DNA from: an uncultured Chloroflexia bacterium
GTDB lineage: Bacteria > Chloroflexota > Limnocylindria > Limnocylindrales > CSP1-4
Assembly (NCBI GenBank): GCA_963768655.1
Contig: CAVYIM010000004.1
Coordinates: 704,001-768,000, forward strand
Length of the DNA: 64,000 bases
Direction: 5' to 3'
Shown piece after piece: positions 10,983 to 44,940 of the stretch (position 1 is its first letter; each line of letters opens with the position of its first letter). Under the pieces are notes generated by a model that saw only the letters and a program-made list of their open reading frames with translations, was not told the origin of the DNA and made no database searches. The position numbers and the translations under genes are program-made.

Positions 10983-10989
10983 AGTCGCC

Positions 10990-11340: not shown

Positions 11341-11342
11341 GG

Positions 11343-26451: not shown

Positions 26452-26470
26452 GGACGTCACAGGAGAGAAG

Positions 26471-28398: not shown

Positions 28399-28609
28399 AC
28401 CTGCTCGCTCTCACGGTGACAACGCGACCGCGACGGGGGTCGCGCAATCGAAGAGGCTATCAGGTCGAGAGCGCCCCTGCTCCGCCTCTCCCGCCACTTG
28501 CCTCGGACGCGAGTCCCGCGGTTCTCACAGCGCGGCTGTCCGCGACGGCGACCGAAGGGGAGTGCGGTCGGGACCCGGCGGACCTCAGCCGACTGCCCAT
28601 GCCGCAGAC

Positions 28610-28653
28610 GTTGACCGCCTGTTAACACCGGCCTAACGAGGGGCAGAGAGTCT
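28610..28653 (+). promoter_or_regulatory. Putative Pho-box promoter of the ABC operon
   Basis: GTTGAC-N5-GTTAAC-N5-CCTAAC-N10-GAGTCT. Confidence 0.7.
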
Positions 28654-28767
28654 ATCGCTGGTTGGCTGCCGTCCCACGGTCCACCACCGCCCCAGGGCTT
28701 GTCAGCGAGCGTGGCCGCCGGAAGACGATCCGGTGCGTCCGCTCGAAGGAATTGAAGGAGGATACCC

Positions 28768-30042
28768 GTGGCGTACGATCCACTGCTCGAACGCATCGAC
28801 CACCTCAGCGGCGCGTTCAACGCCGGTCAGATCGACCGCCGGCAGTTCCTGAAGGGGCTTGTTGGCCTGGGGCTTAGCCTGTCGGCCATCAGCGTGGTCA
28901 TAGCCGCCTGCAGCAGCGCGGCCACTCCGTCGCCGGCCACGTCCGTCCCCGCCACTACCGTTCCTGCCACTCCCGTCCCGGCAACCGCTGCGGCCACCGC
29001 ATCCCTGGCGGCGATGTCGCCGACGGCGATGGCGACGGCCGACCTGACGGCCCTCATCGCGGCCGCCAAAGGTGAAGGCAGCATCTACCAGACCGGCATT
29101 CCGCCAGAGTGGGTCAACTATCAGGCGATCTTCAACCTCTGGCAGCAGGACTACGGGATCCCGATCAACGGCACGTCCACTGAAGGCGAATACAGCTCGG
29201 GCCAGGAGCTCGACTCGATCAAGAACACCGGCAAGCCGGACGTCGGCGACGTCGGAATCGCCTTCGCCGTGCAGGCCAAGACGCAGGGCCTGTCGGCCCC
29301 CTACAAGAACTCCTTCTGGGCGGACATCCCCGACACCGCCAAGGACGCCGACGGCTACTGGTGCTGCAACTACTGGGGCGCCCAGGCCTTCGCCGTCAAC
29401 ACGGACGCGGTCACGATCCCGATCAAGGACTGGAACGACCTTCTCGATCCGTCGCTGAAGAACGCGGTCGGAATCGACGGCGACCCCACCAAGGCGAACG
29501 ACGCTTTCTTCGCCGTGTGGTCGGCGGCCATCGCCAACGGTGGCGGAGTCGACAACATCCAACCCGGCATCGACTTCTTCAACAAGCTGCAGCAGTCGGG
29601 CAACCTGACCGCCGCCCGGGCGAGCGACGCCAACATCCTCAGCGGCGAAGTGAAGGTCGCCATCAAGTGGGACTACCTTGGCCTGGCCGTTCGCGACAAG
29701 GCTGCCGGTGCCCCGAACATAACCGTGACGATCCCCTCGAGCGGATCGCTTGCCAGCCCCTATGCGGACATCATCGCCGCGAAGGCGCCCCATCCGAATG
29801 CGGCCAAGCTCTGGCAGGAGCTCGTCTACAGCGACGCCGCGCAGCTCCTCTTCCTCGCCGGCTACGCGCATCCCATTCGATACGACGTCCTGAACACGGC
29901 CGGAAAGATCCCGGCTGACCTGGCGGCCAAGCTCCCGTCCGCCGACCTCTACAAGAAGGTCACGCTCGTGACCGACATCGACAAGATCACGGCCGCCCAG
30001 ACCGCCCTCGGGACCGGCTGGACGATCGTCATCAACCAGTAG
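28768..30042 (+). CDS. ABC transporter substrate-binding lipoprotein (Tat signal; AfuA/PotD-like fold, likely organophosphate ligand)
   Basis: DRRQFLK Tat motif and IAAC lipobox; PPEWVNY, SSGQEL, DVGDVG, AKDADGYW and APHPNAAKLW motifs. Confidence 0.88.
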   Translation: MAYDPLLERIDHLSGAFNAGQIDRRQFLKGLVGLGLSLSAISVVIAACSSAATPSPATSVPATTVPATPVPATAAATASLAAMSPTAMATADLTALIAAAKGEGSIYQTGIPPEWVNYQAIFNLWQQDYGIPINGTSTEGEYSSGQELDSIKNTGKPDVGDVGIAFAVQAKTQGLSAPYKNSFWADIPDTAKDADGYWCCNYWGAQAFAVNTDAVTIPIKDWNDLLDPSLKNAVGIDGDPTKANDAFFAVWSAAIANGGGVDNIQPGIDFFNKLQQSGNLTAARASDANILSGEVKVAIKWDYLGLAVRDKAAGAPNITVTIPSSGSLASPYADIIAAKAPHPNAAKLWQELVYSDAAQLLFLAGYAHPIRYDVLNTAGKIPADLAAKLPSADLYKKVTLVTDIDKITAAQTALGTGWTIVINQ

Positions 30043-30069
30043 CGACCGAACCAGTCTCGGAGCACCGGC

Positions 30070-30966
30070 GTGCTTTCGACAACTCCTGCGAGCTTCGTCC
30101 GCACGCCCGCCACGGCCAAGATCCGCGGCGGGCGTGCGGCTCTCGCCCTGTTACCGTTCGCCGCCCTGGTCTTGCTCTTCCTCGTGCTGCCGACGCTGTC
30201 GCTGATCTGGGGCAGCCTCCATAACAGCAGGACGGGCGGTTTCACCCTGGGGAATTACTCGTACCTCGGGCATCCGCTCGATCTGGTCCCGTTCGCCAAC
30301 TCGCTCGAACTCTCGCTGGCCGCGACGGTGCTGGGCGGCATGATCGGTCTGCTCATCGCCCAGGCGATCGTGTCGTCGCGCCGGCCCATCGTCCAGGAGA
30401 TCGCAACTACCTTCAGCAGCGTGGCCGCCAACTTCGCCGGCGTGCCCCTGGCCTTCGCCTTCATAGCGACGCTCGGCGCCAACGGGCTGCTGACGAAGGA
30501 GCTGCTCAACGCCGGCGTGGATATCTACGGCGGCGGATTCAAGCTCTATTCGGTCCTCGGCCTCACGGTCGTATACGCGTACTGGGAAATACCCCTGATG
30601 GTGCTCGTAATGCTGCCGCCGCTTCAGGCGATGAAGCCGGCCTGGCGCGAGGCGGCGGAGATCCTTGGCGCCACCAGATGGCAGTACCTGCGGTCAGTCG
30701 CCATCCCGATCCTCATGACGCCGTTCATCTCCTCGCTACTGCTCCTCTACGCCAATGCGTTTGGAGCGTATGCCACGGCGTACGGGTTGACGACCGGGTT
30801 CGTGCCGCTCGTCCCCCTTCAGATCTCGAACCTGGTCAATGGCGACGTCAACTTCGATCCAGGCCTGGCGGACGCGCTGGCGATCGGACTGGCCGTGATC
30901 ATGGCCGTCTGCATTGGGGGCCGGGCCGTCCTGGAGCGGCGGTCGGCCCGGTGGCTGGCGCGGTGA
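30070..30966 (+). CDS. ABC transporter permease
   Basis: Multi-TM with EAA loop WREAAEILGA; NFAGVPLAFAF. Confidence 0.9.
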   Translation: MLSTTPASFVRTPATAKIRGGRAALALLPFAALVLLFLVLPTLSLIWGSLHNSRTGGFTLGNYSYLGHPLDLVPFANSLELSLAATVLGGMIGLLIAQAIVSSRRPIVQEIATTFSSVAANFAGVPLAFAFIATLGANGLLTKELLNAGVDIYGGGFKLYSVLGLTVVYAYWEIPLMVLVMLPPLQAMKPAWREAAEILGATRWQYLRSVAIPILMTPFISSLLLLYANAFGAYATAYGLTTGFVPLVPLQISNLVNGDVNFDPGLADALAIGLAVIMAVCIGGRAVLERRSARWLAR

Positions 30967-30976
30967 GGAGGATGGC

Positions 30977-31870
30977 ATGAGCAGCCCATCGATCACCGGC
31001 GAAGCGACCGAAGAGGCGATCGCCATCCTCCCCGGAGCCCGCGCCAGGGAGAAAGCTGCGCGGCGAACGGGACGCGCTCGCCGGACCCCGGTCTGGGCGA
31101 TAGTCGTGCTGGCGGTGGCGATCGTCTATTTCCTGCTGCCGCTGTACGCGACGGCCGTGTTCGGGTTCTCGACCGGAAAGCACTTCACCCTGCAGCCTCT
31201 TTGGGACGGGCTGGGCGACGACGGCTTTCATTCGGCGCTGATCCTGAGCCTGACCTACTCGATCGTGACGACCGTGCTTGCCCTCGTTGTGGTCGCCCCG
31301 ACGGCCTATCTGGTGGAGCTCCGCTTCCCACGCCTGCGCGCCACGGTCGAGTTCCTGACGATCCTCCCGTTCGTGATCCCGCCCATCATCCTGGCCGTTG
31401 GGCTCGAGACGGTCTACGGCATCAACTCGCCCGTAAACCTGATCAGCTCGTCCTGGGCGCCCGTCCTGCTCACCGGTGGCTATTTCGTTCTGACCCTGCC
31501 GTTCGTGTTCCGCGCCATCGACAACGCGCTGCGCGCCGTGGACGTTCGGATGCTGAGCGAGGCCGCGGCCAGCCTGGGCGCCAGCCCGACGCGCGCGTTC
31601 CTGCAGGTGATCGTGCCCTCCATTTCGCTGGGGTTGGTTTCGGGGGCGCTCCTCGCGTTCACCACTGCCATGGGAGAGTTCACGCTGGCTGCCCTGCTCG
31701 GCTATGCCACGTTCCCCGTCTACCTCTTGAACCTGAATGGCTACCTGCCGCGAATGGGTGAGGCGCTCGTTCTGGTTAGCTTCCTCATCACCTGGGCGGG
31801 CGTGATCGCGCTGGCCGTCGTGGCCCGCAGGACACCCGGCACGCAGGTCATCCGCGGCGGCCCAATGTAA
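30977..31870 (+). CDS. ABC transporter permease
   Basis: EAA loop SEAAASLGAS; MGEFT. Confidence 0.9.
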   Translation: MSSPSITGEATEEAIAILPGARAREKAARRTGRARRTPVWAIVVLAVAIVYFLLPLYATAVFGFSTGKHFTLQPLWDGLGDDGFHSALILSLTYSIVTTVLALVVVAPTAYLVELRFPRLRATVEFLTILPFVIPPIILAVGLETVYGINSPVNLISSSWAPVLLTGGYFVLTLPFVFRAIDNALRAVDVRMLSEAAASLGASPTRAFLQVIVPSISLGLVSGALLAFTTAMGEFTLAALLGYATFPVYLLNLNGYLPRMGEALVLVSFLITWAGVIALAVVARRTPGTQVIRGGPM

Positions 31871-31894
31871 GCAGCTGTAAGGGCAGGATCGGCC

Positions 31895-33073
31895 ATGTCT
31901 CGTCTCGAACTGATCAACGTCAGCAAACGCTTCGGCGCCCAGGTTGCCGTGTCTGACTTCAACCTGACCGTCGAAGACGGTGAGCTCGTCTCGTTCCTCG
32001 GCCCGTCCGGATGCGGCAAAACGACGACGCTGCGCATGGCGGCCGGGTTCGAATCGCCAGACGCCGGCTCCGTCGTGGTCGACGGCGTCGACGTCACCGA
32101 CGTCCCCACGAACAAACGCGGGATGGGGATGGTCTTTCAGGGGTACGCGCTCTTCCCGAATATGACGGCCGCCGAGAACGTCGAGTTCGGTCTCGCCGTG
32201 CGCAAGCGGCCGCCAGCCCAGCGGCGGACGCGGGTCGCGGAACTCCTCGAACTGTTCGGGCTGGCCCACGTGGCCGGCAGCTACCCGCACCAGCTGTCCG
32301 GCGGGCAGCAGCAGCGCGTGGCTCTGGCGCGGGCCGTCGCGATCCAGCCGGGAGTGCTGCTGCTCGATGAGCCTCTGAGCGCCGTCGACGCCAAGGTGCG
32401 AGAGGAGCTGCGGACCGAGATCCGCCGCATGCAGGTCCAGCTGCACATCACCACGATCCTGGTCACGCACGACCAGTCCGAGGCGCTGTCCATCAGCGAC
32501 CGAGTGGTGGTCATGAATCGCGGCGCGATCGAGGAGGTCGGTACGCCGGCTCAGGTCTACGCCGAGCCGCGATCGGCGTTCACCGCCGGCTTCATCGGGG
32601 CGATGAACGAAATCCCCGTTCGAATCGTGTCCGGCACGCAGGGCGTCGTCGAACGTGGCGGACGTCGCGTCACGGCTCCGGGAGCCGCCGGACTCAGCGA
32701 TGGGGAACTGGCGCTCTTGCTCGTCCGGCCCGAATTGCTGGAGCCCCTCGGGGCTGCGAGCGCGGCGCTCAATGGCGACCTGACGATGTTGGGGCGGGTG
32801 GAGGTCCAAACGTTCCTCGGGGCCACCACCAGGCTTCTCCTGCGGGAGGTGTCGCGAGGCGCGGGCGACCTAGTTGCGCCGCCGTCGACTCGCCTGCTCG
32901 CCGTCGACGTTCCGAGCGCGAGTGCCGCAAGCTGGCCGGCCGGCACCGAGATGGAAGTCAGAATCCCCGTCAAGTCGAGCCGTGTGATTGCCGGGCAATC
33001 GGCGGCCAGAGGCATCGCCTGGTCGACGTCGGCGCCGGATGCATCGGGCCCGACTGCCATGCCACACGCATGA
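31895..33073 (+). CDS. ABC transporter ATP-binding protein (PotA/MalK-like, TOBE domain)
   Basis: [29 protein letters not shown] and VTHDQ motifs. Confidence 0.95.
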   Translation: MSRLELINVSKRFGAQVAVSDFNLTVEDGELVSFLGPSGCGKTTTLRMAAGFESPDAGSVVVDGVDVTDVPTNKRGMGMVFQGYALFPNMTAAENVEFGLAVRKRPPAQRRTRVAELLELFGLAHVAGSYPHQLSGGQQQRVALARAVAIQPGVLLLDEPLSAVDAKVREELRTEIRRMQVQLHITTILVTHDQSEALSISDRVVVMNRGAIEEVGTPAQVYAEPRSAFTAGFIGAMNEIPVRIVSGTQGVVERGGRRVTAPGAAGLSDGELALLLVRPELLEPLGAASAALNGDLTMLGRVEVQTFLGATTRLLLREVSRGAGDLVAPPSTRLLAVDVPSASAASWPAGTEMEVRIPVKSSRVIAGQSAARGIAWSTSAPDASGPTAMPHA

Positions 33074-33113
33074 TCGTGCCCGCAGCAGTCCTACGCCACA
33101 CGAGAGGAGCTCC

Positions 33114-34049
33114 GTGAACCGCCTACCGTTCGCCATGCCCGGCCAATTCTGGCGGGGCAACCTGCACACGCACTCGACCCGCTCGGACGGGCACCTGGAT
33201 CCGGCGGCGACGGTGGCGTGGTATCGAGACAACGGCTACGACTTCGTCGCTCTGACCGATCACTTCGTCCGGCGCTTCGGCTACGGGATCACAGATACGA
33301 GGTCCCTGCGCACGGGTGGATTCACGACGCTGATCGGCGCCGAGATGCACGCCCCACGGACGCAAGTCGGGAACCTGTGGCACCTCGTAGCCGCCGGCCT
33401 GCCGATCGACTTCGCCCCGCCGGCGCCGGGCGAGACTGGCCCCCAGCTGGCGGCCCGGGCAGCGGCCGAGGGTGCGTTCGTGATCGTGGCGCATCCGGCC
33501 TACTACGGTCTGACGGTAGCCGACATCGAGACCGTCGACGCGGCCCACGCGCTGGAGATCTACAACGGGGCATCCGCGCTCGCCTACGAGATGGGGGATA
33601 GCGGCCACATCCTTGATGTCCTCATCTCGCGCGGCAGGCGCATCGACGCGTGCGCCACTGACGACGCCCATTTCGAGTATCCGGACTATCCCGATCACGG
33701 TCTCGGATGGGTGGAAGTCAAAGCCGAGGAGAACGACCCGGACGCGATCGTCGCGGCACTTCGAGCCGGTCACTTCTACGCCAGCGAGGGGCCGAAGCTC
33801 CTCGACGTGGCCATCGACGGAGACGAAGTCGTCGTCGCCAGCTCGAGCGTGATGAAGGTGATCGTCTCGGGGGGCGGCGAGCGGTATGAGTGCCGCTACG
33901 GCATCGATCTCACGGAGACTCGCGTGCCCCTCGCGACGTTCCACAACGAAGGCTTCCAGGTGGACCCGGTCCTCGGTACCCACATTCGGATCACCGTGGT
34001 GGACGCGCATGGCAAGCGAGCCTGGACAAACCCCATCTGGCTGAGCTGA
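33114..34049 (+). CDS. PHP-domain metallohydrolase (CehA/McbA-like), probable phosphoesterase
   Basis: GNLHTHSTRSDG, LTDH, GAE, AHP, DDAH and AWTNPIW motifs; GAGGAG RBS before GTG. Confidence 0.88.
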   Translation: MNRLPFAMPGQFWRGNLHTHSTRSDGHLDPAATVAWYRDNGYDFVALTDHFVRRFGYGITDTRSLRTGGFTTLIGAEMHAPRTQVGNLWHLVAAGLPIDFAPPAPGETGPQLAARAAAEGAFVIVAHPAYYGLTVADIETVDAAHALEIYNGASALAYEMGDSGHILDVLISRGRRIDACATDDAHFEYPDYPDHGLGWVEVKAEENDPDAIVAALRAGHFYASEGPKLLDVAIDGDEVVVASSSVMKVIVSGGGERYECRYGIDLTETRVPLATFHNEGFQVDPVLGTHIRITVVDAHGKRAWTNPIWLS

Positions 34050-34143
34050 GGCGCCCATCGGCGGAACAAGCGATCGGGATGAACATGTGGCCGGGTGGCG
34101 CGCGGGCCTACCGGTATGACACGCGGTTCAAGGAGGTTGCGAG

Positions 34144-34356
34144 ATGAACGTTGCGGTTCTCGAGCCTTTCGCCTCCCCAGCGCAAGATGCCGACGCCCGC
34201 GGGTGCGGGCTCGACGCGATCGTCGGCCAGGTCAGCGAATGGATCGACCCCGAAGGCGACGACTGGTTCGCCGCGATCTACCACGAGCTGGCGCAGGAGT
34301 CGCCACAGGCGACTGGCGATCGGCCGGCGTACGAGCTGGAGCACTGGTTCGAGTAG
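34144..34356 (+). CDS. Small acidic hypothetical protein (70 aa)
   Basis: AAGGAGG RBS 7 nt before ATG; GC-ending codons. Confidence 0.6.
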   Translation: MNVAVLEPFASPAQDADARGCGLDAIVGQVSEWIDPEGDDWFAAIYHELAQESPQATGDRPAYELEHWFE

Positions 34357-34475
34357 GCCAGGACGGGCCCGGCGAGTAGGATCAGGCCGACCGGCGGCAT
34401 CGGCCGCGACGGGCCCAACTGGCGCCGGCATCGACGGCGATCGCAAACAGGCGCATCGCCAGGAAGGACTTCGGC

Positions 34476-35000
34476 ATGCACGTCCTCGTCGCCTATGCGA
34501 GCCGCCACGGTGCGACCCAGGGGATCGCCGAGCGCATCGCGGAGACGCTCCGAACGGCCGGCCTGGATGCCGACGCCAGGCCGGCGGCGGCGGTCGAAAG
34601 CCTGAAAGGGTACGACGCGTTCGTGATCGGCAGCGCCGCCTACATGTTCCACTGGGACAAGCGGGCCGCGCGGTTCGTGCGCCGCAACCGCGCGATCCTG
34701 GCCGTGAAGCCTGTCTGGCTGTTCAGCAGCGGACCGCTGGGTGGCGCTCTGGACGCGCAGGGCCGGGACCAGAAGACCGCCGCCGTCCCCAAGGATGTAG
34801 CCGAGTTCATCGCCGCGGTCAACGCCCGTGAGCACCGTGTCTTCTTCGGCGCCTACGAGGGAGGTCGCAAGCCGATCGGGTTTGCCGAACGGTTCGTGTC
34901 GATGATGCCGGCGGCCCGGGAGGCTTTGCCCACGGGCGATTTCCGAGACTGGCCGGAGATCGAAGCCTGGGCTGCCAGCATCGCCCACGACCTCGCCTGA
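34476..35000 (+). CDS. Flavodoxin-domain protein (HemG/Flavodoxin_5-like)
   Basis: YASRHGAT, VIGSAAY, WLFSSGP and GDFRDW motifs. Confidence 0.88.
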   Translation: MHVLVAYASRHGATQGIAERIAETLRTAGLDADARPAAAVESLKGYDAFVIGSAAYMFHWDKRAARFVRRNRAILAVKPVWLFSSGPLGGALDAQGRDQKTAAVPKDVAEFIAAVNAREHRVFFGAYEGGRKPIGFAERFVSMMPAAREALPTGDFRDWPEIEAWAASIAHDLA

Positions 35001-35035
35001 CGCCTGGCGGCCGGCGTCCCCACGAACGACCGAAG

Positions 35036-36214
35036 TCAGCGTCCGGCGTCGGGTGGAAGCTCGACCGATTCCTGGTGCACGAGGATGCCACGGCGCGCGA
35101 GGTCGGCGAAGACCAGGTGCGGCCTGAAGGCCTCCTCGGGCGTGATCACTCCGGTGCGGGCGACCTCGCCCCGGGCCAGCATCTGCGCGCCGATCGCCAT
35201 TGGAATGCCGACGTTTCGAGTGTAGGCGCGCAGCTTCTCCCATCCTGGCACGGATCCGTCCGAGGCCGGGTGAGTGTGCGTCAGCGTGTGGCGCCAGCGG
35301 CGGCCATCGGCTATCCCGGTCACCTCGACGTGCAGGGCATAGCCGTAGAGGTCCGTTTCGGTGCCCTCCCTGGAGTTGAGCAGGTATTCGGCGATGCAAT
35401 CGAGGACGCCGGCGCTGGTGTCCCCGACGCTGATCCGGTCGTTGCGCATGAAGCCCCAGTCGTACAGGGCTCGCATCAGCTGCATGTTCCTGGCCGGCCA
35501 CGTGCCGCGCACCTCGATCAGGCGCACGCCTTTGTGCCCGAGCGCCTTCGCCAGCGTCTTCGTCTCCGCATGCGGAACTACGTACTGCGTCGTCAGGCCG
35601 TAGGGTTCGGGCAGCCGAACTTCGCGTGGCCTGGCAAACGGCGGAACCTGCAGGAAGTGCCCATCCTCGAACACCACCCTGCCCGGGAGGGCGGGATCGT
35701 ACTCGTACGTGGTGGTTTCCGCGATCGAGCGCGAGAAGGCGATCGGTCTATAGGCGCCGTGGCTCACCCTTACGGTGTCGACTGCGTCGAGTTGGTCCGC
35801 CGCAGTCATGGCCATCATCTGGGTCACGCCCGGCGTCATCCCGAAGCCAGGCACGCAGGTCCGGCGATGCTCGCGGAACACCGGATCCGAGGCGTCCTCC
35901 TCGCCGAAGCCGTTGAGGTTGATGGCGTGGCAGCCGGCCCGGGCGATGAGCGCGGTGGAGAGCCCGTTCAGGGCAATGGTGGTGCCGTCCAGCACGACGT
36001 CGTAGCCGCTCATCCTGGCCATCGCCTCGTCGGCATTGTGGATGTCTATATGGGCGAAATCCACGCGCGCATCGTCGAGCTGGGCGACCACCGCCCGGGC
36101 CACGGGCTCGTTGGTGTCGGCCACGGTTATCTGCTCGAAATCGGAGAACTGGACCAGGTCGAGCGCAGCTTCCCGGCAGATCCTGCCGGCACCACCGAGG
36201 CAGAGAGCTCTCAT
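35036..36214 (-). CDS. Saccharopine dehydrogenase/lysine 6-dehydrogenase-family NAD(P) oxidoreductase
   Basis: LGGAGRI Rossmann motif with an acidic residue after beta2 (VADTN); GFGMTPG, PH.ET and GVITPEEAF motifs. Confidence 0.85.
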   Translation of the reverse strand: MRALCLGGAGRICREAALDLVQFSDFEQITVADTNEPVARAVVAQLDDARVDFAHIDIHNADEAMARMSGYDVVLDGTTIALNGLSTALIARAGCHAINLNGFGEEDASDPVFREHRRTCVPGFGMTPGVTQMMAMTAADQLDAVDTVRVSHGAYRPIAFSRSIAETTTYEYDPALPGRVVFEDGHFLQVPPFARPREVRLPEPYGLTTQYVVPHAETKTLAKALGHKGVRLIEVRGTWPARNMQLMRALYDWGFMRNDRISVGDTSAGVLDCIAEYLLNSREGTETDLYGYALHVEVTGIADGRRWRHTLTHTHPASDGSVPGWEKLRAYTRNVGIPMAIGAQMLARGEVARTGVITPEEAFRPHLVFADLARRGILVHQESVELPPDAGR

Positions 36215-36347
36215 GCTGGCGATCCCTTTCGAGCTGGGAGCGTGCGTGTCGGGTGGCCCCCGGCTCCCTCAGATACAGCCGCCGAGCATGCAACCAGGCC
36301 GGGCATGGAGCCAAGATCGAATGACCCGGTGATGGTCAGCGCCACGC

Positions 36348-37178
36348 TCAGGGTCGCTCGCCGAGGGCCACGCGGATTTCGATGTCGTCGAGAACGGGCG
36401 GCAGCTCGGCGATCGACTCGACCAGATAGTGAGCTCCCTGGGCGCGCAGGATCCCGGACGCCTCGCGAATGAGGCCGGCCCGTTCGCGCGGCTTCAGAGA
36501 TGCCAGCTCGTCTTCGGACAATCCCACGTAGGTCCCGGTTCGGGTCACGCCCACGGTCCAGGTTCCGGCGTTGATGCCCTCGTCGATGTCCGCCTTCGTG
36601 TCGCCGACCTTGGCCACGGCCCACGGCGGGAACACCCGCAGCGCCTCCATGACCCGCAGCAACATCCACGGCTCGGGCCGCCCGGCCGGGACCTCGTCCG
36701 CGCAGACCATCACGTCGGGCTCGTAGCCCCGACTCGCGGCCTCGCGGGCGGCGATGTCGCCGACGCTGCGCGGATAGCCCGTCGTCGATCCGACGCGATA
36801 GCCGCGCGCCCGGATCTCCGCGATGGCCTCCACGGTTCCGGGGATCAGATCGCAGAAGCGCGGCAGCACCGCCTCCTGGATCGGGACCAGGGCCTGGTAG
36901 ATCGCCTGGACATCGGTCTCGGTGCATGGGGCGTCGTGGACTCGTTGCCACTCCGCCGCCACCGCGGGATCGGCCGCGATGGCCCGGATGTGGTCGAGCT
37001 TGTATATGCCCATCGGCCCGCGCGCCTGGGCAATGGTGATCTCCACCCCGAACTGGCCGAAGGCCGAAACGAAGGCCCCAACCGGCGCCAGTGAGCCGTG
37101 ATCCTGGGTCGTTCCCGCCCAATCGAGCACGACCGCGCGCAGTCGCCGGCGAGGGTGCCTCGGCTCGGTCGCGGTCAT
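36348..37178 (-). CDS. phnX: Phosphonoacetaldehyde hydrolase (phosphonatase)
   Basis: DWAGTTQDHGS, PMGIYKLDHI (Schiff-base Lys), STTGY, GRPEPW and VGDT..DIDEGINAG motifs. Confidence 0.95.
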   Translation of the reverse strand: MTATEPRHPRRRLRAVVLDWAGTTQDHGSLAPVGAFVSAFGQFGVEITIAQARGPMGIYKLDHIRAIAADPAVAAEWQRVHDAPCTETDVQAIYQALVPIQEAVLPRFCDLIPGTVEAIAEIRARGYRVGSTTGYPRSVGDIAAREAASRGYEPDVMVCADEVPAGRPEPWMLLRVMEALRVFPPWAVAKVGDTKADIDEGINAGTWTVGVTRTGTYVGLSEDELASLKPRERAGLIREASGILRAQGAHYLVESIAELPPVLDDIEIRVALGERP

Positions 37179-38842
37179 CGGCCGGCCCCGGCGCTCGAGC
37201 TTCCCTGCGCAACTGCGTCCGCCCTCGCGGACGTGCCGGCTCCGCTCGACAACTGAGCTGCCGCGTTGACCAGCCTGGCTTCGGCGAGGGCCCGTCCCAG
37301 GGACTCGACGAAGCCGCCGAGGACCTCGAGCTCCAGTGCCCCGAGCGTGCAGACCCGGAAGGTCGTCTTCGCCGCCTGTCCGAGCCCGGCGTAGATGACG
37401 TACCCGTCGCGCTTGACGGCGTCATGCAGACGGTCGTAGTCGACGCCGTCCGGCAGCCTCAGGCTTCGAACGGATGACGACCGGTCGGCGGCGGCGACCG
37501 TCGCTTCCAGGCCCATCTTCGCGAACGCGAGGTCCAGGTAGGCGCCTCGCGCTCGGTACTCGCTGCGGCGGTGGTCGAGGCCCTCATCGAGGAGCTCATC
37601 GAGGGCCGCCTCCAGGCCATACACCGCCGGCACGGCCGGCGTGAATGGAACGCTCGACTTGCTCTGAGCCTCGAGGTAACCGGGTATGTCCAGGTACAGC
37701 GAGTGCCGTGGCGCCTCGTAGGCCCGCGCGGCACCGGCGGGGGAGAGGAGCACGAAGGCCGTTCCGGGCAAACCGTGGAGGCACTTGTTGGAAGTGCACG
37801 CCATCAGGTCGATGCCGGTGCCGGCCAGTCGCAGTTCCTCAGCCCCGAACGAGCTTATGGCGTCCACCGCGACGCGAACGTCTCGAGCTCCGGCCATTGC
37901 CGCGATCTCTTGGACGGGGTTCAGCAGGCCGGTCGTGGTCTCGTGATGGACGACCGCCACGGCGTCGATGGTGGGGTCGGCATCGAGGGCAGCGGCAACG
38001 GCCACCGGGTCGATCGGCTCGGTCTCCGCCGCGCGTAACGGCACGACGCCGATCCCCAACCGCTCGGCGATCGTGGCGAGGCGGTCGCCATAGACGCCGT
38101 TGCGGCAGACGAGCAGTCGCCGGCCTTCACGGACCGACGCACCGACCATCGCCTCCATCGCGGCCGTCCCTGATCCCGCGATCAGGGCCAGGCTCCAGTC
38201 GGAGTCGACACCCGCCACACGGAGGAGCTTCTCCTTGATGCGGACGAAGATCTCCGAGTATTCGGGTTCACGGTGGCAGAGATCCGGCCCGGCTACAGCG
38301 TGATGGATCCGATCGCTGACCACCGCAGGGCCCGGATTGAGCAGCACACGCTGGCGATGGCGCCTATCGCTCCCGTACAGAGTGGCGTCGGTGGCGGCGA
38401 GATCGTCTGGCCCGATGATGCGGTCGGGCTGACCGCGCAGCAGGGCCAGCCGGGCCGCGGATCCGTTCGTCGCGATCCCGATGACGGCCCCGGCTCCGGC
38501 GCGCCGGCCGGCCTCCAACGCGTCGCGCGAGCCGCCCAGCAGCCCCAGGCGCCGGACATCGGGCACATCCGCCGCGGCCAGTGCCACGAGGAGTCCGAAC
38601 GGCGCCGGCGGCAGCGGCCCGCGGACCACGACGTCGGCCAGCCGTCGCTCGACTGGCGTGGGCATGACATCGTCCGGGACGACCAGGACCACTGCTGCGC
38701 CATCCTTGCGGACTCGCTCCAACTCGGAGGCGAGGGTCGTCTGGGCGATCGGCGGCAGGTCGCCCGCGAACAAGGTCCATACCGAGATGGCGCGGTCCTC
38801 GGCCCAGGATCGAACGGTCGCGACGGTGTCGGCGTAGGGCAT
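37175..38842 (-). CDS. phnW: 2-aminoethylphosphonate-pyruvate transaminase with an N-terminal degenerate HAD (phosphonatase-like) domain
   Basis: LLNPGP, CHREPEY, GSGTAAME, NGVYGDR, VHHETTTGLLNP, DAISSFG, SNKCLHG and PFTP motifs. About 165 extra N-terminal residues; start may be 38842 or 38878. Confidence 0.88.
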   Translation of the reverse strand: MPYADTVATVRSWAEDRAISVWTLFAGDLPPIAQTTLASELERVRKDGAAVVLVVPDDVMPTPVERRLADVVVRGPLPPAPFGLLVALAAADVPDVRRLGLLGGSRDALEAGRRAGAGAVIGIATNGSAARLALLRGQPDRIIGPDDLAATDATLYGSDRRHRQRVLLNPGPAVVSDRIHHAVAGPDLCHREPEYSEIFVRIKEKLLRVAGVDSDWSLALIAGSGTAAMEAMVGASVREGRRLLVCRNGVYGDRLATIAERLGIGVVPLRAAETEPIDPVAVAAALDADPTIDAVAVVHHETTTGLLNPVQEIAAMAGARDVRVAVDAISSFGAEELRLAGTGIDLMACTSNKCLHGLPGTAFVLLSPAGAARAYEAPRHSLYLDIPGYLEAQSKSSVPFTPAVPAVYGLEAALDELLDEGLDHRRSEYRARGAYLDLAFAKMGLEATVAAADRSSSVRSLRLPDGVDYDRLHDAVKRDGYVIYAGLGQAAKTTFRVCTLGALELEVLGGFVESLGRALAEARLVNAAAQLSSGAGTSARADAVAQGSSSAGAGR

Positions 38843-38902
38843 CGTGGCAAGAACCTCGCTGTCGGCGCGGCCGCACATAGAATCACCGCCGCCTCTGCGC
38901 GA

Positions 38903-38962
38903 AGGGTGCCGGGACAGCATTAACGCGCCGCGAACGCCCGGTTAACTGGCGTCGCCCACGCT
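38903..38962. promoter_or_regulatory. Bidirectional putative Pho-box promoter (phnW leftward, hydrolase rightward)
   Basis: Plus strand: ATTAAC-N5-GCGAAC-N5-GTTAAC-N10-CACGCT. Minus strand: GTTAAC-N5-GTTCGC-N5-GTTAAT-N10-CACCCT. Confidence 0.75.
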
Positions 38963-38996
38963 CACTGGGTTGAGCACGACATCGTTGAGGTCGGGC

Positions 38997-40115
38997 ATGG
39001 CAGACACTCCTCGGATCGTCCTCCTGGCCTTCGATGGGTTTCCGCTTCGACACTTCCGACCGACTGTCACGCCGAACCTCTGGCGCCTGGGTCAGGAAGG
39101 CGGGTTCAGTCCGGAAGGCGGCCGAAGCGGTCTCCCGTCCACGACGTATCCGGGTTTTGCGTCATTGCTCACAGGCGCGAGGCAGGGAACGACGGGAGTA
39201 CGGACCACAGCTCAGAGGTCAGGGCCAGTTCCGGGATGGGCAGGCAAGGATCGGATCCTCGTCCCGACTATCGTCCACGCGGCCAATGAGGCCGGGCTGA
39301 AGACCGCAGCCGTCGTCGGCGACCACAAGCTTGCCCGAGTGCTTCGCTTCGATCAGCTGGAGCGGGCCTGGCCACCGGGGGCGACGGTGCCCGTCGGAAC
39401 GGAGCTGGACGCGCACGGCTACCCGACGAATTCCGCCGTCCGCGGTCCCGCCCTGGAGGCAATCGCCGACTCGAGTGTCGACCTGGTGTTCGTCCACCTC
39501 AACGAGACCGACACGCTCGGCCACGACCTGGGGCCGAGCGCCCCGGCAACCGCAGAGTGCGTCCGGGCCGCCGACGCGCTGGTGAGCGAGATGATCGACG
39601 CCCTGAGTCCGGATTGGGACCGGACGCTGGTGGCCGTCGTCTCCGACCACGACATGGCGCGGCGCCTGCCGCTGCCCCCCATCGACCCGAGCGCCGGCCG
39701 CGACTGCGCCGGGCTCGTCGACGACTGGATCGCGGACGGATGTGCCGCGTGGGTCCGCCTGACCCCCGGCGCCGATCATCACATGGCCATCAGCAGGCTC
39801 GCGGGGCTGGAGGGCGTCGAAAGCTGGCGCTGGCGCGAGCCCGCCACTCTTCTGCTGCTGGCCGCTCCGGGCCGCGTCTTTGCGGCTCCACGGATCCCCG
39901 CCGCGGGCGTGCACGGGTCCGCGCAGACGGCTCGAACCCTGGCCATCGTCGGCGGTGGCCATCCGGTCGCGGTCGAGCTTGGGCGCGCCATCGGCGTGCG
40001 GCCGCCGCGGCTGCGGGATTGGGCGCCGACGCTCGCGCCGGTGCTGGGCATCGACCTCCCCGACGCCGACGGGCTGAACATGCTCGAAGCGTGTGAGATC
40101 GCCTCTGCCGGCTGA
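38997..40115 (+). CDS. Alkaline-phosphatase-superfamily hydrolase (NPP/phosphodiesterase or PhnA-like), cytoplasmic
   Basis: LAFDG, PSTTYP (Thr nucleophile), DTLGH, SDH and GVHGS metal motifs; no signal peptide. Confidence 0.85.
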   Translation: MADTPRIVLLAFDGFPLRHFRPTVTPNLWRLGQEGGFSPEGGRSGLPSTTYPGFASLLTGARQGTTGVRTTAQRSGPVPGWAGKDRILVPTIVHAANEAGLKTAAVVGDHKLARVLRFDQLERAWPPGATVPVGTELDAHGYPTNSAVRGPALEAIADSSVDLVFVHLNETDTLGHDLGPSAPATAECVRAADALVSEMIDALSPDWDRTLVAVVSDHDMARRLPLPPIDPSAGRDCAGLVDDWIADGCAAWVRLTPGADHHMAISRLAGLEGVESWRWREPATLLLLAAPGRVFAAPRIPAAGVHGSAQTARTLAIVGGGHPVAVELGRAIGVRPPRLRDWAPTLAPVLGIDLPDADGLNMLEACEIASAG

Positions 40116-40242
40116 GCCGGCCGCACCGGGGGGTCGTGCCAGGTGCCAGGGTGGGTCGCGCCGTGACCCGTCGGCGCCCGCTTGCCGCCGATGCGCTACC
40201 CTCGCGGTGGTTGCCCACAGGCGAGCGAGGTATCGCGCGAAA

Positions 40243-41202
40243 ATGAGTCGTCCCCGGCCATCCGGCTTCCAGGCGATCGCTCTCGCCCTGGTCGTCGCCG
40301 TGGCGGCCTGCTCGAACGCGGCGGGAACGTCGCCGCGCCCCAGCCCCGTTCCCTCGTCGGCGGCGCCGAGCGAGGCGCTCGGTTCATCCACGCCCACGCC
40401 GCCGGTCGCCGGGGACTCACTCCCGACCGATACGTCATCCCCGACGACGCCGGTTCCGGTCCAGCCCTCGACGCCCGCGCCGAGCCCGAAGGCAGCGTCC
40501 GGCACCTGGACCCTCGACGTCTACGACGCTCGAGCCGTGCGCTGGCAGAATCCCGACCTGGACGCATGTACCGCCGCCTCGGCTCTGATCATGCTCAACA
40601 TGGCGGACTACTGGCCGGACTACCTGCCATTGGGTGCCCTCGATCCGGTGCCGTCGCCACCGCGCGACTGGAAGCCGGACGTCACCTATGCGCGCCAGGA
40701 ATCGATCCTGGCCTATCAGCGGGCGACTGGCACGATGTCGCTCTCGTGGCCTGGTGCGGACGCTCACGGCTGGCGCAACTCGCTCAACTACTACGGCTGG
40801 GGCAGCATCAAGGCGGGCGTCTACGCCGACCAGGCATTCACCTCGTTCGACGCTGCCGTCCGAGCGACCGTCACGGCAATCGCGCTGTACCGCAAGCCCG
40901 TCGGGATCCTGAGCATGGCGGGGAATCACGCCCAGATCGTCACCGGCTACAAAGTCACGGGCGGGGATCCCCGGACGGGCACGACCAGCTTCACTGTCGT
41001 CGGCGTCTACCTGACCGATCCCCTGCAATCCCACGGCTACCGCGACTACTACGCACCTCTCGCGACCTTGAAGTCGGGTGGCAAGACGATCAGATTCACG
41101 CCCTACGAGATGACGAATTCGCCCAAGGTGGACCCCATCGACGGCCAGCAGGGCAACGCCGAATGGGACGGTAAGTGGGTGACGGTCGCGCCGGTTCGGT
41201 AG
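40243..41202 (+). CDS. Lipoprotein with a papain-like (C39-like) peptidase domain
   Basis: VAAC lipobox and Ser/Pro linker; Q...ACTAAS, GNHAQIVTGY and LTDP give a Cys-His-Asp triad pattern. Confidence 0.65.
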   Translation: MSRPRPSGFQAIALALVVAVAACSNAAGTSPRPSPVPSSAAPSEALGSSTPTPPVAGDSLPTDTSSPTTPVPVQPSTPAPSPKAASGTWTLDVYDARAVRWQNPDLDACTAASALIMLNMADYWPDYLPLGALDPVPSPPRDWKPDVTYARQESILAYQRATGTMSLSWPGADAHGWRNSLNYYGWGSIKAGVYADQAFTSFDAAVRATVTAIALYRKPVGILSMAGNHAQIVTGYKVTGGDPRTGTTSFTVVGVYLTDPLQSHGYRDYYAPLATLKSGGKTIRFTPYEMTNSPKVDPIDGQQGNAEWDGKWVTVAPVR

Positions 41203-41254: not shown

Positions 41255-42043
41255 TCAAGGATTCAGGTCTTCGACCTCGCCCGTAGCCAGGAAAACCACG
41301 TCCTCCGCGATGTTCGTGACACGGTCGCCGATGCGCTCGAGGTAGTGCGCCGCGAACAGGATCCGCGTGCCGGGGTCGACCTTGGCCGGGTCGGTCCGCA
41401 TCTCGGCCAGGACGTCGTCGAAGCACTGGTGGTAGAGGCGATCGATCTCGTCGTCCCGAGCGGCCACCTCGCGGGCGCGCTTCTCGTCGATGTCGACCAG
41501 GGCCATCACGACGTCCCGGACCTGCCGGGCGGCAAGCGTCGCCATGGGAGTGAGCTCGTCGTAGGTCACCATGCTCACGATGCCGGCGAGCTTGCGAGCC
41601 TGCTTGGCCACAGACCCGGCGTGGTCGCCCATCCTCTCGAGTTCGTACGTAACCCGATCAAGGGCCAGCAGGAAGCGCAGGTCGCGCGCCACCGGCGCCT
41701 GGGTCGCGATCGTCATGGCCACCAGCGCCGACACGCCGCGCTGGACCTCGTTGATGCGACCGTCGGATACGATGACCTGTCGGGCCAGCTCCGCGTCGCG
41801 GTTCACGATCGACTCGAGCGCGGCCAGGATCTGCTCCTCGACATAGGTCCCCATTCGCAGAACGCCGTCCTTGACGTCCCTCATCTCCGTGTCGAGGCTC
41901 TCGCGCATGTGCTGGGCGTGTCGTTCCGCCTCGGACATCGCGTCGTCGAAGGCTGAGGTGGCAGTTCCGGATTCGGCAACCGGGGCGCCGGCCGCCCGAT
42001 CGAGTGACTGCATCGTCGACTCCTCGTGCTGCTGGGCGCTCAT
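41255..42043 (-). CDS. phoU: Phosphate signalling protein PhoU
   Basis: [24 protein letters not shown] and [13 protein letters not shown] motifs; coupled to pstB. Confidence 0.95.
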
Positions 42044-42921
42044 CCGAACCGCCCGGAGATGTAGTCCTCGGTCAGGCGCTCGTTGGGCCGGGTGAAGATG
42101 CGGCCGGTGGGGCCGACTTCGACGAGGTACCCGGCCCGGTCCTCGGCCATCGTGAAGAAGGCCGTGATGTCGCTCACGCGGGCTGCCTGCTGCATGTTGT
42201 GGGTGACGATGACGATGGTGTAGGCCTCGCGAAGCTCGCGCATCAGCTCCTCGATGCGGAGGGTCGAAACAGGGTCGAGAGCCGAGGCCGGCTCGTCCAT
42301 CAGGATGACCTCGGGGTCGGTCGCGAGGACCCGGGCGATGCAAAGGCGCTGTTGCTGGCCGCCCGAGAGGGCCAGGCCGGACTTTCGACGCAGGTCGTCC
42401 TTGACCTCGTCCCATAGCGCCGCCCGCTTGAGGCTGGTCTCGACCAGCTCGTCGAGCTTGCGTTTGTCGTTCTGGCCACGCCGCCGCGGGCCGTAGGCGA
42501 CGTTCTCGAAGATCGACATCGGAAACGGGTTGGGCCGCTGGAAGACCATGCCGACGCGGCGTCGGAGCTCGACGACGCTCACGTCCGGATCCATGACGTT
42601 CTCGCCGTCCAGGCAGACTTCGCCCCGAACGCTGGCTCCGGGGATGAGGTCGTTCATGCGGTTGAAGCAACGCAGGAACGTGCTCTTGCCGCTGCCCGAC
42701 GGGCCGATCAGGGCCAGTATCGAGCGCTCCTGGATGGTGAGCGACACGTCTCGCACGGCTACCTTTTCGCCATACGAGATCGACACGTGCTCCGTGGCGA
42801 TCTTCACTTCGGCCGGTTGTGCCGCCATGTCTTCGGCAACGCGGGACGCCGTCACCTCGACGCGCCGGAGTACGGGTTCTGGGTAGAGGGCGGTTGTGGG
42901 CATCTCGTCTCCGGTGCTCAT
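42040..42921 (-). CDS. pstB: Phosphate ABC transporter ATPase
   Basis: [33 protein letters not shown] and YISGRFG motifs. Confidence 0.97.
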
Positions 42922-43874
42922 GCTGCGGTCAGCTTGCGGGTCAGGATGCGGCCGACGCCGCGCGCCCCGAGGTTGAATATCAGGACCATCGAGATGAGGA
43001 CGGCGGCGGAGCCGTCCACGATCTGGTTCTTGTAGGCGCCGAGGCCTTCGGAGTTGAGCTTGTAGATGTAGACCGAGAGGGTCGTGGCCGGCCGGAACGG
43101 GCTCCAGGGCGAGGCCGGGCTGAGCAGATCGAAGTTGGCGAAGTTGTAGTGGGGCGGCGTTCCGATCCCGGCCGTGAAGAGCAACACGGCGGCTTCGCCG
43201 AACACCCGGCCCGCGGTGAGGATCACGCCGGTTATCAGGCCGGGGATGGCGAGCGGTACCACCACGTGTCGGATGGTCTGCCACCTGGTAGCCCCGAGGG
43301 CGAGGCTGGCGGTGCGTTCCTCCTGGGGCACGGCCCGGAGCGCCTGTTCGGACAGGCGGGTCATGAGCGGCAGGTTGAAGAAAGTCAGGGCCAGCGCACC
43401 CGCCAGGGCAGTGAAGCCCCAGTGGGCGTCGTCGACGAAGAGGATCAAGCCGAACAGGCCCACCACGATCGATGGGACCGAGCTGATTGCCTCTTCGGCA
43501 AACCGGATGGCGCTGGTCACCGCGTTCTCGCCGGCGTATTCGGACATGTAGATGCCGCCCAGGACGCCCACGGGAACGGCGATCAGCATCGTCAGGACGA
43601 GCATGTAGCTCGAGTTCCACAGCACCGGCAGGATGCCGCCCAGCGCGGTCTCGCTCGGGTCGCTCAGGATGAAGCTCGGCGACACCACTCCCCACGCCGC
43701 GAGCGCGAAGTGGAGAAGGATGCTGCCGAGGATCAACAGGACCAGCATGCCCGTGCCCCACAGGGCCGCGGTCGCTGCCCGGTCGGCCAGGATGCTGCCC
43801 CGGGAGCCCTGGCGTCGCAGGCTGGGCTTCGGGCCGCTCGGGCGGGTGAGAGTCTGGCCGGCAGGCGCGGTCAC
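42918..43874 (-). CDS. pstA: Phosphate ABC transporter permease
   Basis: [23 protein letters not shown] and GRVFGEAA motifs. Confidence 0.95.
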
Positions 43875-44851: not shown

Positions 44852-44880
44852 CGGCACTGCCTCGACTCGATGAGTTCGTG

Positions 44881-44927: not shown

Positions 44928-44940
44928 GGAGGAGAGGAAC

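Follow-up and report, generated by a model that had tools for sequence, protein, structure and literature searches.

A saccharopine-dehydrogenase-fold oxidoreductase encoded beside phnX as a candidate NAD-dependent aminophosphonate dehydrogenase in phosphonate gene clusters of eight phyla

The gene and its locus

We analyzed a 64,000-nucleotide stretch of DNA (the window) from an uncultured Chloroflexia bacterium, in which a gene for a saccharopine-dehydrogenase-fold oxidoreductase (SDH) lies directly downstream of phnX, encoding phosphonoacetaldehyde hydrolase, and of a gene resembling phnW, encoding 2-aminoethylphosphonate (AEP) aminotransferase. The features of the locus are listed in Table 1. 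As a preliminary description of the window had noted, SDH is on the phnW-phnX strand, 133 bp 3' of phnX, with no strong terminator evident in the gap. A consensus scan of positions 34000-39200 returned 0 terminator-like and 0 promoter-like sites, the spacer folded no better than shuffled sequences (z = 0.29), and Rfam gave no family in 28000-41000, spacer included. Near the 3' end of the spacer, just upstream of the SDH ATG, lies a ribosome-binding-site-like sequence, GAAAGGGA. Co-transcription of SDH with phnX is plausible in the window, whose own genome holds one SDH copy.

Table 1. Features of the window, with positions numbered from its first nucleotide
Feature	Position	Strand	Description
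SDH gene	35036..36214	(-)	392 aa, ATG start; PF03435 + PF16653
Rossmann dinucleotide-binding motif, G7-C13 (G8-x-G10-x-x-C13)	36176..36196	(-)	Aligns to GxGxxG of carboxyspermidine dehydrogenase 8deb
Asp33, end of beta-strand 2	36116..36118	(-)	Predicted NAD+ (not NADP+) selector; invariant (30/30)
GFGMTPG motif (residues 123-129), then Thr131	35828..35848	(-)	Aligns to G-C-G-F-D-P-G of carboxyspermidine dehydrogenase
Glu171	35702..35704	(-)	Invariant; aligns to substrate-positioning Glu188 of carboxyspermidine dehydrogenase
His215-Ala216-Glu217	35564..35572	(-)	Aligns to His228-Glu229-Glu230 of carboxyspermidine dehydrogenase; H215 and E217 invariant, A216 nearly so
phnX-SDH spacer	36215..36347	(-)	133 bp
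phnX, phosphonoacetaldehyde hydrolase	36348..37178	(-)	276 aa; TIGR01422, 313.1 bits vs cut-off 220
phnW-like AEP aminotransferase gene	37175..38920	(-)	581-aa ORF; overlaps phnX start by 4 nt
Type I phosphodiesterase/NPP-family metalloenzyme	38970..40115	(+)	Divergent from phnW; PF01663, 79.8 bits
ORF with Pro/Ser/Thr-rich N-terminal half	40093-41202	(+)	369 aa; between NPP gene and PhoU
PhoU	41255-42670		C-terminal part of this ORF
PstB, PstA, PstC, PstS	42040-45891
Second regulator-like ORF	45971-46801
Flavodoxin_5 ORF	34476-35000	(+)	174 aa, weakly HemG-like; between CehA-like hydrolase and SDH end
CehA/McbA-family PHP metallohydrolase	32988..34049	(+)	Last gene of ABC operon; NF038032, 103.8 bits vs cut-off 80
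AEP-type ABC importer	28768..33073	(+)	Converges on SDH operon; syntenic arrangement in a Chloroflexia relative (L001)
Importer binding protein	28768-30042	(+)
Importer permeases	30070-30966, 30914-31870	(+)
Importer ATPase	31895-33073	(+)
PitA-like transporter	27265-28398
OmpR/PhoB-type response regulator	26297-27169

Long spurious open reading frames (ORFs) are common in the window because of its high G+C content (~69%). For SDH, such an artefact is ruled out by homologues of up to 84% identity together with a confident AlphaFold2 model (mean pLDDT 90.5, pTM 0.89); the ORF is a genuine gene. Its start codon is supported because 29 homologues begin at the same Met in the alignment. An alternative 404-aa ORF (36211-37425), which crosses phnX in another frame, was rejected: it is low in complexity and rich in Arg and Gly, and the frame of PhnX itself gives a score of 313 bits.

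Fold, cofactor site, and catalytic residues

The fold and family assigned in the preliminary description held up in both domain and structure searches. The SDH protein scored above the Pfam cut-offs for PF03435 (Sacchrp_dh_NADP; residues 4-100, 48.1 bits vs 25.1) and PF16653 (Sacchrp_dh_C; residues 125-377, 58.5 bits vs 31). With the AlphaFold2 model as the query, Foldseek ranked carboxyspermidine dehydrogenases (CASDH; 8deb, 8h4z, 4ina, and 4rl6) first, with template-modelling (TM) scores of 0.80-0.82 at 17-19% identity. These were followed by the Pyrococcus L-lysine dehydrogenase 3abi (0.71 query-normalised, 0.80 target-normalised), by the human AASS saccharopine dehydrogenase domain and fungal saccharopine reductase (0.73-0.79), and by homospermidine synthase (0.56-0.64); the fold was thus shared with 8deb, 8h4z, 3abi, 5l76, and 1ff9 at TM 0.71-0.82. 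In the profile search, CASDH proteins alone were matched over the full length (E = 2.8e-16 for 8deb, to 6e-6). Lysine dehydrogenase 3abi was matched in the Rossmann part only (residues 1-143, E = 0.0044), with no phmmer match at E ≤ 0.01, and saccharopine reductase over C-terminal stretches only (E = 0.017 for 1e5l and 0.0096 for 2axq).

Residues were mapped by means of the HMMER alignment to CASDH 8deb, read onto a conservation table of 30 sequences. The Rossmann and GxG.TPG motifs that had been claimed are both present, as G8-x-G10-x-x-C13 and G123-F-G-M-T-P-G129. In the first, G7 and G10 are invariant and G8 nearly so; in and just after the second, G123, G125, M126, T127, P128, G129, and T131 are invariant. 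As described for CASDH in PMC10413350, the backbone of the G-C-G-F-D-P-G segment holds the nicotinamide amide, His228 is the proposed general base, linked via Glu230 and Ser144 to solvent, and Glu188 and Glu229 position the substrates. Invariant Thr131 aligns to Ser144 of this proton relay, and the counterparts of His228, Glu230, and Glu188 are invariant as well (Table 1). Judged by this alignment, the catalytic apparatus for imine/amine redox chemistry is predicted to be kept in the SDH family. The same account gives lysine dehydrogenase and saccharopine reductase as having no His-Glu-Glu motif (PMC10413350). Furthermore, Arg or His is invariant at R149, H152, R156, R195, R236, H295, H313, H315, R329, and R333, positions at which the aligned CASDH residue is not Arg.

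At the cofactor site, Asp33-Thr34-Asn35 aligns to Ser34-Arg35-Thr36 of CASDH, with Asp33 opposite Ser34. An acidic residue ending beta-strand 2 is the classical mark of a preference for NAD over NADP. In CASDH, Ser34, Thr36, and an Arg are reported to hold the 2'-phosphate of NADP (PMC10413350), and Asp33 in place of these binders leads us to predict a preference for NAD+. A switch in cofactor preference to NAD+ is probable and is what an oxidation in catabolism would lead one to expect. The NAD dependence suggested in the preliminary description is supported, as a predicted preference, by the invariant Asp33 where CASDH has Ser-Arg-Thr.

Size and distribution of the SDH family

A word-indexed homologue search returned at least 1192 relatives at E ≤ 0.001 among 8000 candidates scored. 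The best 120 of the 1192 covered at least 93% of the query at 65-100% identity; they came from Brevibacillus, Paenibacillus, Aneurinibacillus, Bacillus, Acidimicrobiales, Terracidiphilus, and Clostridia. Family members 60-84% identical to the window protein occur across at least 8 phyla, and in an alignment of 30 sequences from eight phyla, column identity averaged 73%. After a library had been clustered at 50% identity, one full-length protein (56% identity, 474 bits) plus fragments stood for the whole family, and the next relatives were at most 37%, roughly 35%, identical. No NCBIfam model matched the window SDH at E ≤ 0.01, and none of the 55 nearest representatives reached an NCBIfam cut-off, the best being carboxynorspermidine synthase at 167 bits vs 800. 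Among the curated families and solved structures searched, none covers the SDH family; ESM Atlas offered only generic family names, and database source names were generic or "lysine 6-dehydrogenase." A search for longer proteins returned no fused SDH forms, which is weak evidence. The SDH family appears to be a discrete, unnamed, and widespread variant of the saccharopine-reductase fold, recruited to phosphonate catabolism.

Within the window's own phylum, SDH was found in 2 of 251 sampled genomes, the window genome included; in that sample, none of the 5 same-genus genomes and none of the 6 further same-family genomes listed carried it. A separate set of 16 genomes from the window's family was sampled for PhnX, which was present in 2. 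In this lineage the cluster as a whole has a patchy distribution that fits lateral acquisition.

Linkage to phosphonate genes across species

We collected 43 SDH loci from other species, 30 of them with at least 5 kb on both flanks. PhnX was encoded at 16 of the 43 loci, PhnW at 19, either of the two at 19, an AEP-type ATP-binding cassette (ABC) ATPase at 22, and any of these at 26. Among the 30 well-flanked loci, 17 had PhnX or PhnW, and 22 had any of the genes when the AEP-type ATPase was included. The neighbours are genuine, with scores above their cut-offs: 326-363 bits vs 220 for PhnX, 472-605 vs 400.8 for PhnW, 480 vs 393 for PhnS2, 655-707 vs 525 for PbfA, and 475 vs 408 for PhnA (L010). 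In a maximum-likelihood tree of 44 SDH sequences, adjacency to PhnW or PhnX was found on both deep branches and in 8 phyla. The functional link to phnW and phnX proposed from the window alone thus extends to other species, and the contrary expectation, that close homologues would never be found near phn genes, clearly fails (PhnX and/or PhnW at 19 of 43 loci).

Gene order varied with the lineage. Bacillota showed PhnS2-ATPase-permease-PhnX-(PbfA)-PhnW-SDH-DeoR, Terracidiphilus a TonB-type porin followed by PhnX, a major facilitator superfamily transporter, PhnW, and SDH, and Sedimentisphaerales PhnW-PbfA-SDH; the order ABC-PhnX-PbfA-PhnW-SDH was found in one Pseudomonadota and one Syntrophobacteraceae metagenome-assembled genome (MAG). 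In Syntrophaceae and relatives, SDH accompanied a PhnX-like hydrolase, two class-III aminotransferases, and an ABC system, and Desulfobacterales loci had a divergent GntR/UTRA regulator. In two loci (L015 and L025), a 4-nt overlap joins the stop of PhnW to the start of SDH. Like the accessory enzymes of AEP catabolism, the SDH family recurs in AEP-degradation clusters across taxa.

Two kinds of neighbourhood carried further enzymes. Locus L026, from Desulfobacterales, encodes PbfA, then a PhnA-like protein and SDH; next come three genes that score below cut-off, for a corrinoid protein like MtgC, a methyltransferase like MtaA/CmuA, and a binding protein like PhnS2. The corrinoid and methyltransferase genes lie 3' of SDH both there (9333-11593) and in L016 of Desulfobacterales (8616-9695), the MtgC-like protein scoring 206 bits vs 370 and the MtaA/CmuA-like proteins 101-111 vs 235. 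With a corrinoid demethylation module placed next to phosphonate genes, N- or O-methylated phosphonates may be used anaerobically there. In a Sedimentisphaerales MAG (L009:9145-12544), two genes resembling citryl-CoA lyase and one for an acylating aldehyde dehydrogenase (SauS-like, 511 bits vs 600) come after PhnW-PbfA-SDH and may reflect a CoA-dependent fate of the aldehyde product.

An unbiased sample of 301 Bacillales genomes was scored for PhnX above cut-off and for SDH. PhnX was present in 32 genomes and SDH in 17, all 17 of which also had PhnX; SDH alone occurred in 0, PhnX alone in 15, and neither in 269. The co-occurrence was significant (Fisher one-sided P = 2e-19), a value that is overstated because related genomes are not independent. 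In 17 of 17 cases, SDH was on the same contig and strand as PhnX and downstream of it, by 1137-1166 bp in 14 genomes and by 2528-2543 bp in 3.

Separated arrangements were also seen. Of five genomes whose SDH locus is without phnX, four have PhnX above cut-off elsewhere, compared with 0 of 14 control genomes. Brevibacillus sp. SIMBA_040 has a full phn cluster ~13 kb from its lone SDH on the same contig, and two SDH-less clusters in all. Another genome (G004) has an ABC-PhnW-PhnX cluster and a separate operon in which a PHP gene, a substrate-binding protein gene, ATPase, permease, SDH, and DeoR genes stand together; an SDH operon with its own transporter fits an enzyme acting on an imported compound. 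One strain of Brevibacillus fluminis carries two complete paralogous ABC-PhnX-PhnW-SDH clusters on two contigs (L002 and L007), each with an SDH copy.

For comparison, we examined 15 PhnX loci from 14 of the 15 PhnX-positive, SDH-negative Bacillales genomes. Six had the same operon minus SDH, ABC-PhnX-(class-III aminotransferase)-PhnW-DeoR, and six another order, permease, substrate-binding protein, PhnW, and PhnX. In two more, an amino-acid permease, PhnX, and a thiamine pyrophosphate (TPP)-dependent enzyme stood together, and one (L048) belonged to no type. The TPP-enzyme gene is followed by an alanine dehydrogenase gene in L046 (4581-8783) and by a class-III aminotransferase gene in L059; there was no PhnW in the scanned stretch of either. 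Displacement of SDH by a flavin oxidase was rejected, as none of the 15 loci had a PF01266 gene in the SDH position. Nor did any PF01266 protein (the PbfB/C/D family) occur among the 121 + 98 + 48 neighbour proteins scanned.

Proposed reaction and its alternatives

From the observed fold, conserved residues, family conservation, and genomic linkage, we infer the cofactor, direction, substrate, and product of the SDH reaction. We propose, with a probability of about 0.5, that SDH is an aminophosphonate C-N oxidoreductase dependent on NAD+, with AEP or N-substituted AEP as its substrate and phosphonoacetaldehyde as its product, and that it acts as an accessory enzyme of hydrolytic AEP catabolism with a saccharopine-reductase/carboxyspermidine-dehydrogenase fold. 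Enzymes of the saccharopine-reductase fold move hydride between NAD(P) and a terminal CH2-N carbon, by which a C-N bond is made or broken (also PMC10413350). The proposal is made because of this chemistry, because of a likeness to aspartate semialdehyde, and because consumers of phosphonoacetaldehyde are co-located with SDH. Aspartate semialdehyde is the aldehyde substrate of CASDH, and phosphonoacetaldehyde would resemble it in being a small anionic aldehyde.

In the proposed mechanism, an aminophosphonate imported by the PhnS2-type ABC system would bind with its C2-N bond over the nicotinamide ring. Hydride would then move from C2 to NAD+, with the His215-Glu217-Thr131 relay accepting the proton, and hydrolysis of the imine would give phosphonoacetaldehyde, with ammonia or a small amine as the other product. 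The aldehyde would be removed irreversibly by PhnX (in other lineages by a PhnX-like enzyme or the PhnY/PhnA route), and by this removal the otherwise unfavourable NAD-linked amine oxidation would be pulled forward.

The equilibrium of NAD-linked amine oxidation favours the amine, and the nearest characterised enzymes are described as physiologically reductive and condensing (PMC10413350). Both points would fit an SDH that works reductively, joining phosphonoacetaldehyde with ammonia or an amine at the expense of NAD(P)H, either for aldehyde detoxification or for synthesis of an N-(2-phosphonoethyl) amine, much as in carboxyspermidine synthesis. However, SDH has catabolic surroundings throughout (importer, PhnX, PbfA, PhnA, and a Pho-type neighbourhood), we predict NAD+ rather than NADPH as its cofactor, and the 121 + 98 + 48 neighbour proteins scanned included no phosphoenolpyruvate mutase and no product of a biosynthetic phosphonate gene. 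We regard a reductive role as very improbable.

Several observations weigh against the aminophosphonate dehydrogenase proposed here. SDH-positive and SDH-negative Bacillales operons interleave in the PhnW tree (7 changes) and in the binding-protein tree (6 changes), no better than shuffled labels. Wherever flanks or genomes could be searched, SDH is mostly accompanied by PhnW or another aminotransferase, and no cluster pairing SDH and PhnX without an aminotransferase was seen among them; simple AEP deamination would lead one to expect some such clusters. The flavin enzyme PbfD, as described in PMC13576164, can stand in for PhnW, whereas SDH mostly accompanies an aminotransferase. Moreover, L003-L005, L011, and L042 have no phosphonate gene within 8 kb, as is the case for several short contigs. 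Canonical PhnX was found in 0 of 5 Thermodesulfobacteriota genomes, two of which have PhnW above cut-off and two more near-cut-off or split matches; a partner hydrolase there would need to be PhnX-like or PhnA-like. Finally, the invariant Arg and His residues listed above would suit an anionic substrate or anion site and are only suggestive.

The interleaved operons indicate that SDH is an optional accessory, gained and lost without a visible change of transporter. An SDH-negative and an SDH-positive locus (L045 and L060) are close neighbours in both trees and have near-identical operons. A transporter specificity dedicated to SDH was dismissed, there being no sign of it in PhnW and binding-protein trees that do not separate the operon types. 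The idea of SDH as a plain substitute for PhnW is tempered by this gain and loss between near-identical operons and by the aminotransferase company that SDH keeps.

A pyridoxal-phosphate-dependent transaminase cannot use a secondary amine such as N-methyl-AEP. It is possible, though somewhat unlikely, that the SDH substrate is such an amine unusable by PhnW (N-methyl-AEP or another N-substituted AEP); we rate this somewhat above AEP itself, which we consider unlikely. N-substituted AEP is favoured because the closest characterised relatives of SDH use secondary amines, because no SDH-PhnX cluster without an aminotransferase was seen, and because of the Desulfobacterales corrinoid/methyltransferase module.

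The near-constant presence of PhnW as the immediate neighbour of SDH, in the order PhnX-PhnW-SDH or, in L018 and L034, SDH-PhnW, can also be explained if the SDH substrate is an N-substituted conjugate of AEP, such as an opine-like or alkylated N-(2-phosphonoethyl) compound, in which the bond from the nitrogen to the substituent is broken. Free AEP would then be set loose together with an aldehyde or keto acid, for PhnW and PhnX to degrade. The usual company of an aminotransferase fits this alternative, as does the G004 arrangement, in which SDH and its own transporter stand apart from PhnW-PhnX, and both CASDH and saccharopine reductase act on secondary amines. On the other hand, we know of no such natural AEP conjugate, and SDH-positive operons have binding proteins that are not set apart from those of SDH-negative ones. 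The precedent of the fold, as given in PMC10413350, would place the hydride on the carbon of the small anionic aldehyde and so favour phosphonoacetaldehyde as the product. Cleavage on the substituent side of the nitrogen is, in our judgment, unlikely, yet it is the strongest of the rival readings.

Tight adjacency to PhnW would likewise be expected of an enzyme that handles a by-product of the pathway, regenerating pyruvate from the alanine that PhnW makes or processing acetaldehyde. The true alanine dehydrogenase in the SDH-less cluster L046 shows that acceptor recycling can be encoded in such clusters. Nonetheless, terminal CH2-N carbons are the site of action of the characterised members of the fold, which do not attack amino-acid alpha-carbons or plain aldehydes, and SDH also occurs with class-III aminotransferases and PbfA where the locus is without PhnW. 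These points make a by-product role very improbable.

The loci without nearby phosphonate genes (L003-L005 and L042) and the source name "lysine 6-dehydrogenase" speak for a lysine or polyamine function unrelated to phosphonates. They are set against the adjacency to PhnX in 17 of 17 Bacillales and to PhnW or PhnX in 8 phyla, the match to the solved lysine dehydrogenase in its Rossmann part only, the lack of any NCBIfam match, and a CASDH NADP site and Glu229 that are not kept. Among the scanned neighbour proteins, there were no recurring lysine or polyamine genes and no carboxyspermidine decarboxylase domain. A lysine or polyamine function is very improbable, the least likely of the readings considered. 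Altogether, the interpretation in the preliminary description is partly supported, by the linkage, the fold, the NAD prediction, and the conserved catalytic residues (the His/Glu/Ser-Thr relay); the substrate and product that it named are candidates.

Surrounding genes in the window

The phn cluster sits inside a phosphate-acquisition region (26297-46801; Table 1). The phnW-like ORF has a class-V aminotransferase domain (PF00266, residues 216-512) and falls under the equivalog cut-offs (TIGR03301, 300.6 bits vs 360.8; NF010006, 238 vs 296). Its aminotransferase domain begins near residue 190, after an N-terminal HAD-like extension of ~190 aa with a weak PhnX-like/HAD match (TIGR03351, residues 105-165) and no obvious DxD nucleophile motif. 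The Chloroflexia relative L001 keeps the ORF over its whole length, extension included, at 78% identity across 542 aligned aa. Brevibacillus fluminis (L002) encodes PhnX and PhnW as one complete 648-aa fusion protein, and the extension in the window may be a degenerate remnant of a fusion of this type.

Among the importer genes, the ATPase scored 380 bits against TIGR03265 (PhnT2; cut-off 457.7), with weak PhnS matches for the binding protein and weak PhnU2/PhnV matches for the permeases. PHP-type genes adjoin SDH in L001, L017, and L028 too. The NPP-family gene is syntenic in L001, and NPP-family or PhnA genes are also found near SDH in L010, L026, and L032. The Flavodoxin_5 ORF converges on SDH, with ~35 bp between the two stops. 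The 369-aa ORF at 40093-41202 had no match in Pfam or NCBIfam.

Implications

No natural phosphonate is more common than AEP, whose breakdown gives phosphorus and nitrogen back to ecosystems. Its hydrolytic pathway is known to be entered by way of PhnW, a transaminase dependent on pyruvate, and of flavin oxidases, which require either oxygen or an unknown acceptor. SDH is present in about half of the PhnX-bearing Bacillales sampled (17/32), and its other carriers belong to Chloroflexota, Acidobacteriota, Verrucomicrobiota, Planctomycetota, Lentisphaerota, Pseudomonadota, and Thermodesulfobacteriota. They include Syntrophaceae, Desulfobacterales, Sedimentisphaerales, and Victivallales, which we take to be anaerobes and in which oxygen-using amine oxidases would not serve. 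SDH is probably a missing oxygen-independent step of AEP breakdown. More tentatively, and at somewhat less than even odds, the family would be the first aminophosphonate dehydrogenase that is linked to NAD+ and needs no oxygen. As a new "phosphonate breakdown factor," it would give AEP or N-alkylated AEP access to the phosphonatase pathway in 8 or more phyla.

If true, this would add a widespread and unrecognised pathway step, reaching across 8 phyla and into lineages presumed to be strict anaerobes of sediments and digesters. It would also correct misleading automatic names ("lysine 6-dehydrogenase") and widen the known substrate range of the saccharopine-dehydrogenase fold to phosphonates. 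Beside the corrinoid-dependent demethylation module of Desulfobacterales, SDH would suggest that N-methylated aminophosphonates have an anaerobic route. As a candidate for a new phosphonate-pathway step, SDH is well founded, easy to test, and an easily expressed target for assays, and the near-identical natural operons L060, with SDH, and L045, without it, form a ready comparison.

Comparison with known systems

The accessory enzymes described for AEP catabolism comprise PbfA and the FAD enzymes PbfB/C/D (PMC10590968), the PF02826 racemase PbfF (PMC12366243), and the alcohol dehydrogenases PhpC and PbfG (PMC13576164), none of which belongs to PF03435. In the main texts of the literature searched, no paper links the saccharopine-dehydrogenase fold to phosphonate catabolism, and the only text in which the two subjects co-occurred was an Acinetobacter genome paper; supplementary cluster tables (PMC10590968 and PMC8154272) might list SDH. 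Comparable systems include PbfF, an HAEP racemase, and PbfG/PhpC, Zn/Fe alcohol dehydrogenases that oxidise HEP. Their folds differ from that of SDH, and so does their chemistry, racemisation and alcohol oxidation. They are NAD-dependent accessory enzymes, a dependence predicted for SDH as well, and were likewise found by genomic context in phosphonate-degradation clusters; they are described as feeding phosphonoacetaldehyde or a precursor to PhnX or PhnY-PhnA (PMC12366243, PMC13576164).

PbfC and PbfD, which are FAD dependent (PF01266), share the proposed place of SDH in the pathway, the conversion of AEP or N-methylated AEP to phosphonoacetaldehyde (PMC10590968, PMC13576164). Their fold and cofactor are unrelated: SDH has PF03435 and PF16653 only, with no PF01266 (DAO) domain in the Pfam search. 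In addition, PbfD uses O2, and PbfC did not reduce NAD(P)+ in the assays described in PMC10590968, whereas SDH is predicted to be NAD linked and is found in lineages presumed to be anaerobic.

CASDH (8DEB, 8H4Z, 4RL6, and 4INA) is the best match to SDH in both fold and profile and has the same three-domain architecture, PF03435 plus PF16653. By the HMMER alignment, its His228, Glu230, Ser144, and Glu188 are matched by H215, E217, T131, and E171 of SDH, and its aldehyde substrate is small and anionic. The two differ in that identity is low (17-19%), that SDH does not match the CASDH equivalog NF043000 (cut-off 800 bits), and that Glu229 is replaced by Ala216 and Ser34-Arg35-Thr36 by Asp-Thr-Asn, from which NAD+ is predicted. 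Furthermore, SDH stands among catabolic phosphonate genes and not those of polyamine biosynthesis.

L-Lysine 6-dehydrogenase (3ABI, Pyrococcus horikoshii), whose name some sources give to SDH proteins, has the same fold. The two can barely be related by sequence, and then only in the Rossmann domain; the lysine enzyme is described as having no His-Glu-Glu motif (PMC10413350), whereas SDH keeps the His and second Glu. Its NAD-linked reaction, in which a terminal primary amine is oxidatively deaminated to give an aldehyde, offers the nearest chemical parallel to the conversion of AEP to phosphonoacetaldehyde.

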